Assembly: GCA_045612865.1 (NCBI GenBank)
Contig: JAZKZW010000082.1
Location: 5,135 to 69,134, forward strand
DNA from: Eubacteriales bacterium
GTDB lineage: Bacteria > Bacillota > Clostridia > Oscillospirales > CAG-272
Length of the DNA: 64,000 bases
Direction of reading: 5' to 3'
The notes beneath the pieces were generated by a model. It saw nothing but the letters and a program-made list of their open reading frames with translations. It was not told the DNA's origin and did no database searches. A program made the position numbers and the translations under genes. Positions 10,888-12,227 of the stretch are shown in pieces (the stretch's first letter is position 1; every line of letters begins with the position of its first letter).

Positions 10888-11073
10888 TCAATTCTTGTTA
10901 CTTTCATTTGCTACATCCTTTATATAATCTTTAATAATTTCATTATTTAATAAGCTAAATAGCTCTTCTTGATTATGTTTATCTATGATTATAGCACAAG
11001 CCTCGTTCCAGCTCAGATCTTCAGCATGATACTCTGCGCCTTCATCTGTTGTTATCCAAATATCTACTTTCAT
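10888..11073 (-). CDS. hypothetical protein
   Basis: 61 aa ORF. Confidence 0.25.
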   Translation of the reverse strand: MKVDIWITTDEGAEYHAEDLSWNEACAIIIDKHNQEELFSLLNNEIIKDYIKDVANESNKN

Positions 11074-12227
11074 TTACCTACTCCTCTATTACTATTCAAA
11101 CCAAAATCATATGTTTGATAAAGGTCAATATAAAACTTTTCCTTTTCATTTAATTCGTTTATGTTGCATTTTTCCAATACTTCAAAAGTAAAGTTATCAA
11201 TACCCTTTTCGCGCGTAAAAGCATAAAGTTGGCTGGTAACAGGGGTATCAATACCTAGTGAACATTTTACGTGTCCAACCCAGCGCTCTTTAATATCTTT
11301 GGCTTGACCAATATAAGAAATACCAGAGTCAATATGTGTTATCTTATATATTCCACTTGCGCCTAAGGCACCTGTGCGCGCCGCAAGTTCATTAACTTTA
11401 TCGCGGTAAAAGGTTGACCATATAAGCATGCGCAAGGGACGCGCTTCGCGCAAATTATATTCAATACTTTGTAAATAAGCCACATCGCGCCTATCTGCTT
11501 CATTAAGCTGAAGCGTGTAAAAAGTTGCCTTATCTTTTATCTCTTGTTCTCGAAGTTGCGCCTCCATTACGGCGGCTCGAGTTGCTCGGATTCCGTCAAG
11601 CTCAGATCGTATGATATCAAGATTTCTTTGGAGCTCTTGTTTTCTTCGCTCAAAAGCTTCCTCATTTCCTCGTATTTCTGCTGCAAGAGCGTCTTGTTCA
11701 GATTCGAAGATGTGACCCAGATTAGCTAAGAGTTCATCATATTCTTGTTCCTTTTTAAAGTATTCTGCTTCAATAGCATCACACCATGACGAGAAAGCTT
11801 GGCGCGCCAAGCGCTATTGATCGCGCATAGTCTCATCTATCGAGTGTTGTAAAGTGCCCATTTGCGCGGTTAATTGTTCATTTTGTGTAAGCAGCGCATT
11901 GTTCTTTGCTTCGTTTTCTGCGAGCGTAAGTTGGCATTTTTGCTATTGTTCAATTAACTCATTTACCGTATTTTCAATAATTTTCTAATTTTTAAGTAAA
12001 TCTTCATTCTTTTGTAAAATTCGTTTATTAGATTGAAGATGTTGCGCGCCTTCATCTGCCAAGCGCTGATTTTCTTTTTCTAGATATTCTTTAGTAACAT
12101 AAAGATTCTAGTTATACATTTCTATATCTATATCTTTTTGTTTTAAATTCTTGTGTTCCCAAATAGTGAAGCCGATACAGAAAGCTCCGCCTAATACGAG
12201 AATAATATATGCTATTACCAATCCCAT
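11070..12227 (-). CDS. GIY-YIG endonuclease with N-terminal TM helix and long coiled coil; four in-frame TAG codons (11814-16, 11943-45, 11985-87, 12108-10)
   Basis: frame from ATG 12227 has only TAG stops (no TAA/TGA) for 386 codons; C-terminal GIYKITHIDSGISYIGQAKDIKERW. Confidence 0.6.

Follow-up and report, generated by a model that had tools for sequence, protein, structure and literature searches.

Borges et al. described phages of Firmicutes and Bacteroidetes that use genetic codes 15 or 4, with suppressor tRNAs, replication genes in the standard code, and differing codes among close relatives (bioRxiv 10.1101/2021.08.26.457843; Nat Microbiol 2022). In ~127-kb phages of the Agate clade (~127-154 kb) of that study, a family of group I intron endonucleases prefers the recoded codon, and a delay of endonuclease production was proposed (bioRxiv 10.1101/2021.08.26.457843). 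Babkin et al. (2023) described phAss-1 (proposed Phassvirus, OQ749652), which has a genome of ~136 kb, many tRNAs, tRNA-Sup(CTA) genes, TAG read as Gln, and a proposed Clostridia host; 28% of its open reading frames (ORFs) carry TAG, virion genes included (PMC10607447). In crAss-like phages, metaproteomics by Peters et al. demonstrated Gln at TAG codons (PMC9523058). Here, we analyzed a 64,000-nucleotide stretch deposited under Eubacteriales bacterium (assembly GCA_045612865.1, contig JAZKZW010000082.1, positions 5,135 to 69,134), hereafter called the window. According to the original prediction, a gene in it that ends in a GIY-YIG domain (11070-12227, the focus gene) stays open through four TAG codons, as expected for a reassignment of TAG like that of code 15, most likely to Gln. 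The recoding is real; the phenomenon is already known, and the window is a further example of it.

The window resembles the code-15 phages of Borges et al. (crAss-like, Lak, and "gemstone" clades) in its in-frame TAG codons, its tRNA(CUA), the lack of TAG as a terminator, and its standard-code replication genes, and it differs from them in having no release factor gene within its bounds. Among these the Agate clade comes especially near, and no terminase is available by which the window phage could be placed in it. The published endonuclease case in that clade is TGA to Trp, whereas in the window it is TAG that occurs in seven nuclease genes of four types. The best match to the focus protein among GenBank phages was phAss-1 (33% identity, residues 199-382), and NCBI now lists a taxon "Caudoviricetes code 15 clade"; however, phAss-1 is distant from the window phage, with no match at the nucleotide level.

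Translation of the focus frame on the minus strand, from the ATG at 12227 to the TGA at 11070-11072, gave 385 sense codons plus the stop (386 in total). It contained exactly four in-frame TAGs, at codons 40, 81, 95, and 138, no TAA, and no internal TGA. The contexts were DLLKN[TAG]KIIEN, LIEQ[TAG]QKCQ, MRDQ[TAG]RLARQ, and EMYN[TAG]NLYV, and the flanking residues agreed with those quoted earlier. Under the standard code (translation table 11), the ORF at this locus is 11070..11810, encoding 246 amino acids from a TTG start. This leaves 469 bp unassigned up to the neighboring upstream gene, which ends at 12280; the gap had been put at 470 bp. A chance baseline was taken from the off-frames of confident genes (TAA plus TGA, 0.075 per codon), and by this measure the probability that the 139 upstream codons are open by chance was about 2e-5. 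When the 417-bp stretch 11811..12227 was shuffled, 2 of 20,000 shuffles lacked an in-frame TAA or TGA. A contig assembled independently at the Joint Genome Institute (JGI), L001, encodes a protein that is 96% identical and has the identical set of four TAGs. A sequencing artifact, which had been named as one way in which the prediction might fail, was therefore excluded. Synonymous divergence between the window and L001 was 0.05 in codons 1-140 and 0.59 in codons 141-385, which suggests that a recent recombination breakpoint between the two may lie inside the gene.

Stop codon usage at gene ends, proposed earlier as a check, was compared in a window gene list curated by hand, since a greedy code-15 call gave spurious ORFs on the opposite strand. 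The 57 curated genes without TAG ended in TAA (39) or TGA (18) and never in TAG, and all 9 curated genes with TAG, the focus gene included, likewise ended in TAA or TGA. Of the stop-type triplets on the coding strand, 18% are TAG, yet 0 of 66 window genes end in it. Three table-11 ORFs of at least 80 amino acids did "end" in TAG; each was either a fragment of a gene with TAG or an internal ORF that is spurious. There were also no TAG endings among 58 called genes in four related contigs. Whole-window ORF statistics did not single out TAG, as reading TGA or TAA as sense lengthened more ORFs; the TAG signal is therefore specific to certain genes.

A tRNA with the anticodon CUA is encoded 10 kb from the focus gene, on the coding strand of that gene, and is presumed to be the decoder of TAG. 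ARAGORN labels it "Pyl", solely from the CTA anticodon. Its D-arm, GCCAAGCGGCTAAGGC, is typical of bacterial (E. coli) tRNA-Gln, and it possesses a G73 discriminator, the pairs G2-C71 and G3-C70, and an unpaired position 1-72. The tRNA-Gln identity elements considered here are those of the E. coli glutaminyl-tRNA synthetase (GlnRS). A copy identical at 75 of 76 positions was found in IMG/VR contig 3300029305_004519, where the focus-gene ortholog is 55% identical. The E. coli supE allele provides a parallel: it is a glnV amber suppressor tRNA-Gln with the anticodon CUA that inserts Gln at UAG, and it is a mutant host allele with partial activity. The window tRNA likewise joins a tRNA-Gln body to a CUA anticodon; unlike supE, it is a phage gene that is conserved, and all gene ends have lost TAG. 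The supE precedent is cited by Borges et al. (bioRxiv 10.1101/2021.08.26.457843).

The amino acids found at TAG columns in database homologs were rejected as evidence because they are circular, the proteins having been called with TAG as Q. The gene of one such protein, P0001, has three in-frame TAGs that are translated as Q in the database. The codon comparison was therefore done on the DNA of 11 focus-gene orthologs. The alignment had 16 TAG-containing columns, and CAA or CAG was also present in 12 of these; Gln makes up only 6% of residues. At column 336, in the nuclease domain, 10 sequences had CAA or CAG and 1 had TAG. Each of the 11 close orthologs carried 2-5 TAGs and never TAA or TGA. 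When the focus gene was compared to that of contig L002, dN/dS (nonsynonymous to synonymous divergence) was 0.40 at a dS of 0.82 for codons 1-140 and 0.09 for the remainder, values that place the TAG-bearing N-terminal third under purifying selection. More distant relatives in the standard code (L012-14, L017, L019, L022, L024, and L027) have the same architecture of membrane anchor, helix, and nuclease with no in-frame stop. At positions occupied by Trp in the window protein, distant homologs from rumen-type samples (L007, L011, L015, L016, L018, L020, L021, L025, and L026) read TGA in frame, as in RMLI[TGA] compared to RMLIW and ATR[TGA]KNHAK compared to KERWVGHVK. The focus family therefore occurs in phages of three kinds, those with TGA to Trp, those with TAG to Gln, and those with the standard code, which agrees with the published shifts of code among close relatives.

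Besides the focus gene, at least eight window genes require TAG readthrough, with 1-9 TAGs each (Table 1), and in six of these, all nuclease genes, the profile matches run across the TAGs; several match over their full length only when TAG is taken as sense. In the GIY-YIG gene at 54449, one TAG lies within YIG[TAG]S, and paralogs have YIGQ. At codon 13 of the Sak4-like gene, the window has TAG and the L095 ortholog has a Gln codon. A GTG directly 3' of this TAG is a table-11 start codon (8345..8411), and without suppression, re-initiation there could give a protein only 13 residues shorter. No family was matched in profile searches by the ORF downstream of the suppressor tRNA. The homologs of the divergent-unit gene carry 3 TAGs in L097 and 2 in L098.

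TAG was concentrated in nuclease genes, being present in 7 of 8 nuclease-type genes (Fisher p = 3.6e-7). Only 2 of the 58 remaining genes had it, one at codon 3 and one at codon 13. Related contigs showed the same split. There, no TAG occurs in the genes for ligase, topoisomerase, and helicase or in YorF/YorH, compared to 2-5 in the focus gene and as many as 8 in endonuclease genes that are inserted. The replication genes of the window are free of TAG, and no structural or lysis gene lies within it. TAG-bearing genes were also poor in CAG (12 CAG and 100 CAA, compared to 158 and 249 in other genes), which is consistent with derivation of TAG from CAG by C-to-T change, with an AT-richer composition of the TAG genes, or with both.

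The label "GIY-YIG gene" describes the focus product only in part. A GIY-YIG domain is indeed in frame at the C-terminus (Pfam PF01541, residues 291-372, E 1.4e-7), and the product as a whole is a membrane-anchored long-helix protein. PHROG homing-endonuclease families matched the protein, and TIGR01453 "group I intron endonuclease" matched its catalytic part only (58.3 bits, residues 291-372). A PDB sequence search, PADLOC, and NCBIfam returned nothing for this protein besides the GIY-YIG domain. The AlphaFold2 model of the full-length ortholog P0001 (mean predicted local distance difference test score, pLDDT, of 83) had an unbroken helix at residues 3-229, with pLDDT >90 over most of its length, that spans every TAG position. 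Of the "continuous coiled coil" described originally, the continuous helix held up in the model; a coiled coil might form if this helix oligomerizes. The nuclease domain, a compact alpha/beta fold, was superposed by Foldseek on the catalytic domain of I-TevI (1LN0/1MK0, template modeling score 0.81-0.82, root mean square deviation 2.4 Å, 24-27% identity). No variation was seen at the GIY, YIG, Arg, Glu, and Asn positions in 48 homologs, so the nuclease is probably active.

Databases held 416 homologs of the focus protein, mostly of 355-404 amino acids and covering 99% of its length, and there was no relative of the family in 185,579 GTDB representative genomes. The gene was found in all relatives examined, and its position is fixed, with the NAD-ligase gene and two small ORFs lying upstream of it (L002, L003, L094, and L095). 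The fold and catalytic motifs of the domain are those of I-TevI-type homing endonucleases. However, in I-TevI the catalytic domain is N-terminal and not C-terminal, and in the focus protein a membrane anchor and a helix of ~230 residues stand in place of a DNA-binding module, of which none is recognizable. I-TevI-type elements are, moreover, sporadic and intron-associated, in contrast to the fixed syntenic position of the focus gene. Domain order, the lack of a DNA-binding module, and fixed position mean that the focus protein is not a classical homing endonuclease. One guess is that it serves as a membrane-tethered nuclease against host or competing DNA.

The assignment of TAG to Gln under code 15 was thus borne out by the tRNA(CUA), the terminators, the codon exchanges, the selection on the reading frame, and the other genes. 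We consider it highly probable that the window comes from an uncultured tailed phage of ~105-135 kb that uses code 15 and reads TAG as Gln with its own Gln-derived tRNA(CUA). As in the published account of alternatively coded phages, this tRNA would be transcribed from the replication module, among the genes expressed first. A host enzyme would presumably charge it with glutamine, and the charged suppressor would compete with host release factor 1 (RF1) for UAG and insert Gln there; we infer the charging and the competition, as well as any role in timing. The focus gene would then give one 385-residue protein comprising the anchor, the ~230-residue helix, and an I-TevI-type nuclease domain with intact catalytic motifs. 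Core replication genes, being free of TAG, would be translatable by the unmodified host from the start of infection. TAG-bearing genes would yield full-length product only after the suppressor tRNA accumulates, and the codon could thereby delay nuclease production or set a threshold for it, since the TAG-bearing genes of this region are nearly all nuclease genes (six homing-endonuclease-like genes and the focus gene). High suppression efficiency would be needed, since one gene carries nine TAGs.

Several points weigh against this explanation. The residue inserted at TAG in this phage is deduced from sequence comparison. Lys codons (AAA/AAG) occur in 6 of the 16 TAG columns and TAT in one, and partners such as these lie a single base from TAG, so that closeness by mutation is a confounder of the argument from substitutions. 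Neither release factor nor aminoacyl-tRNA synthetase genes turned up in the window. Many Firmicutes lack GlnRS, and if the host does also, the enzyme that would charge a CUA-anticodon tRNA is in question. The ATG at 12227 has no Shine-Dalgarno motif, and a strong terminator-like hairpin (12235..12270, GGGACTA...TAGTCCC followed by a T-rich run) lies directly in front of it. In L002, the focus ortholog instead overlaps the stop codon of a small upstream ORF. Weak selection, or import from more heavily recoded relatives, could account in place of regulation for the abundance of TAG in nuclease genes, and the contrast between early and late genes in TAG content is carried over to this lineage from the literature.

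The Lys and Tyr codons in those columns, together with the "Pyl" label from ARAGORN, would fit a reading of TAG as a sense codon for another amino acid, such as lysine, tyrosine, or pyrrolysine, and not for Gln. This is very improbable given that the tRNA forms an ordinary cloverleaf whose D-arm is of the tRNA-Gln type, with G73 and a G2-C71/G3-C70 acceptor stem, that it is less similar to the phage tRNA-Lys or tRNA-Tyr than to tRNA-Gln, and that Gln is the commonest TAG partner and the sole partner in column 336. Phages of comparable kind have been reported with TAG to Gln only (PMC10607447; bioRxiv 10.1101/2021.08.26.457843). No pylS/pylBCD-like gene was present among the annotated window ORFs, and pyrrolysine decoding was rejected on this finding and on the Gln-like standard cloverleaf. 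Alternatively, the standard code could apply, with the 246-residue ORF as the real product and the upstream 470 bp as noncoding sequence or the remnant of a pseudogene or split gene. The JGI table-11 call on the 96%-identical contig is indeed a 245-residue protein (P0007), and the absence of a Shine-Dalgarno motif at ATG 12227 also fits. However, an upstream part without TAA or TGA and under purifying selection, an anchor and helix conserved in hundreds of homologs (some with no in-frame stops), and the retention of TAGs, never TAA or TGA, in 11 of 11 close orthologs make this reading scarcely credible; moreover, its TTG start falls in the middle of the predicted continuous helix.

A further scenario is that suppression is partial or leaky, with TAG mostly terminating and the TAG genes made at a low level throughout infection. 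RF1 of the host is presumably still present, no RF2 or anti-RF1 gene was seen in the window, and most of the TAG genes are selfish nucleases for which low expression would be tolerable. In contrast, the complete lack of TAG as a terminator is expected if readthrough is efficient enough to harm gene ends, and under inefficient suppression the gene with 9 TAGs would give essentially no full-length product. We regard leaky suppression as unlikely, and it differs from recoding by an efficient suppressor in degree, not in kind. It is a tentative possibility that the in-frame TAGs have been selected as a translational time-lock on nucleases, beyond being tolerated synonymous Gln codons. The suppressor tRNA would then license DNA cutting only once the phage genome had been replicated or protected. 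In an early region that otherwise keeps to the standard code, TAG is found in seven nuclease genes belonging to four unrelated types, each focus ortholog keeps its 2-5 TAGs, and one TAG is kept in 8 of 11 sequences despite saturated synonymous sites.

Table 1. Coordinates of the focus gene, the tRNAs relevant to TAG decoding, and other features of the window.
Feature	Position	Strand	Details
Focus gene	11070..12227	-	N-terminal transmembrane helix, helix to ~230, two short helices, C-terminal GIY-YIG nuclease domain 291-382
TAG codons of the focus gene	12108-12110, 11985-11987, 11943-11945, 11814-11816	-	From the translated frame
Amber suppressor tRNA, anticodon CUA	22444..22519	-	ARAGORN; Rfam tRNA 46.4 bits
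Phage tRNA-Gln(UUG)	45026..45105	-	Nearest window tRNA to the suppressor, 61/76 positions identical
Cys-repeat endonuclease (phrog_559/9084 "HNH/homing endonuclease"), 9 TAGs	24949..25761	-	Profile match at residues 35-242, across the TAGs
Cys-repeat endonuclease paralog, 1 TAG	35176..35934	-	Profile match; WNC[TAG]CDCG compared to CQCDCG in the paralog
Third Cys-repeat endonuclease, 5 TAGs	59671..60600	+	Opposite strand
GIY-YIG homing-endonuclease-like, 4 TAGs	54449..55258	-	phrog_7168, 1.6e-39
GIY-YIG homing-endonuclease-like, 2 TAGs	57764..58594	-	phrog_314, match at residues 1-247
LAGLIDADG-type endonuclease, 1 TAG	18491..19423	-	phrog_4645, 5.7e-35, residues 21-306
Sak4-like ATPase, TAG at codon 13	7407..8411	-	TAG downstream of an ATG with a Shine-Dalgarno motif
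ORF directly downstream of the suppressor tRNA, TAG as third codon	21908..22399	-	Shine-Dalgarno motif in front of the ATG
First gene of a short divergent unit, 1 TAG	62984..63448	+	N-terminal transmembrane helix; homologs in L097 and L098
ROOL RNA, full length	42702..43321	-	Rfam RF03087, 161.6 bits, model positions 1-574; between tRNA-Thr and tRNA-Leu

The window covers the part of a large tailed phage genome that serves replication and nucleotide metabolism, and nearly all of its genes are on the minus strand. Among its products are a RecJ-like exonuclease, primase, DnaB helicase, Sak4-like ATPase, NAD-dependent DNA ligase, and both topoisomerase II subunits, as well as RNase H, RNA ligase, a sigma factor, and nicotinamide phosphoribosyltransferase. 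A Shine-Dalgarno motif precedes 51 of the 61 start codons checked, and relatives carry SPbeta-type YorF/YorH genes; from these two features, the host would be of Firmicutes type. Related IMG/VR contigs are 120-135 kb long. When 9-20 kb of window sequence was compared to GenBank phages by megablast, there was no match, and the large topoisomerase subunit was at most 36% identical to proteins of the GenBank phage collection. By these nucleotide and topoisomerase protein searches, the lineage appears to have no close GenBank phage relative. Late genes were sought by scanning IMG/VR with right-end genes, which gave no match except for one further scan that matched L097-L099, and these hold only the short divergent unit of unknown genes. 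Exact-protein look-ups towards late genes with window proteins and the database protein P0121 also gave no match, and the right-end gene had no relative in GTDB genomes.

About 25 tRNAs form an array at 42.3-54.4 kb, with the ROOL RNA within it. Several of these tRNAs are unusually long (80-93 nt). One, at 52677..52751 on the minus strand, has an eight-base anticodon loop, given by ARAGORN as anticodon "agtt" (Rfam, 45 bits), and a tRNA-like element at 47186..47257 on the same strand was found by Rfam only (43.8 bits) and has no 3' CCA.

The gene for topoisomerase II subunit A (16118..19800, minus strand) is interrupted. Its N-terminal piece (19525..19800) ends in GTYHPHGK and a stop codon, and the gene resumes at about 18220-18233 with DSSIYGAMVRLAQPW; the insert of ~1.3 kb holds the LAGLIDADG-type ORF. 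The L095 ortholog is one uninterrupted gene of 782 amino acids. From its position at the conserved YHPHGD motif, the insert looks like an intron with a homing endonuclease, and an Rfam search of it found no intron family (E <= 1).

An 822-residue protein (30767..33235, minus strand) matched the shoulder domain of the major vault protein (PF11978, 9.7e-26) and had SPFH/Band 7 similarity. On the opposite strand, a Leu/Ile/Ser/Cys-rich frame of 797 codons (30920..33313, plus strand) is open across nearly all of this gene, compared to a longest off-frame run of 162 codons in other genes. It looks like a shadow ORF, and the vault-shoulder gene must therefore be nearly free of TTA, CTA, and TCA codons. 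A flotillin-like protein of 510 residues (39756..41288, minus strand; Band 7 2e-24, Flot 2.2e-6) is also encoded by the phage; its gene and that of the vault-shoulder/SPFH protein are 6.5 kb apart.

Knowledge of how the genetic code can be reassigned is unchanged by these findings. For annotation, table 11 fragments or N-terminally truncates at least nine window genes, and JGI holds one truncated call for a relative; public protein sets already translate relatives of the focus gene with TAG as Q. The window adds a lineage without a close GenBank phage relative to the known code-15 phages. Two observations go slightly beyond the literature: the sharp marking of nuclease genes by TAG inside a standard-code module, and a conserved, nonmobile, membrane-anchored GIY-YIG protein that always carries TAGs. 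TAG might even be confined to nuclease genes in this lineage. The marking of nuclease genes by a recoded codon within a standard-code replication module had been hinted at once before, and the small set of genes makes the idea that recoding times the production of dangerous proteins testable.

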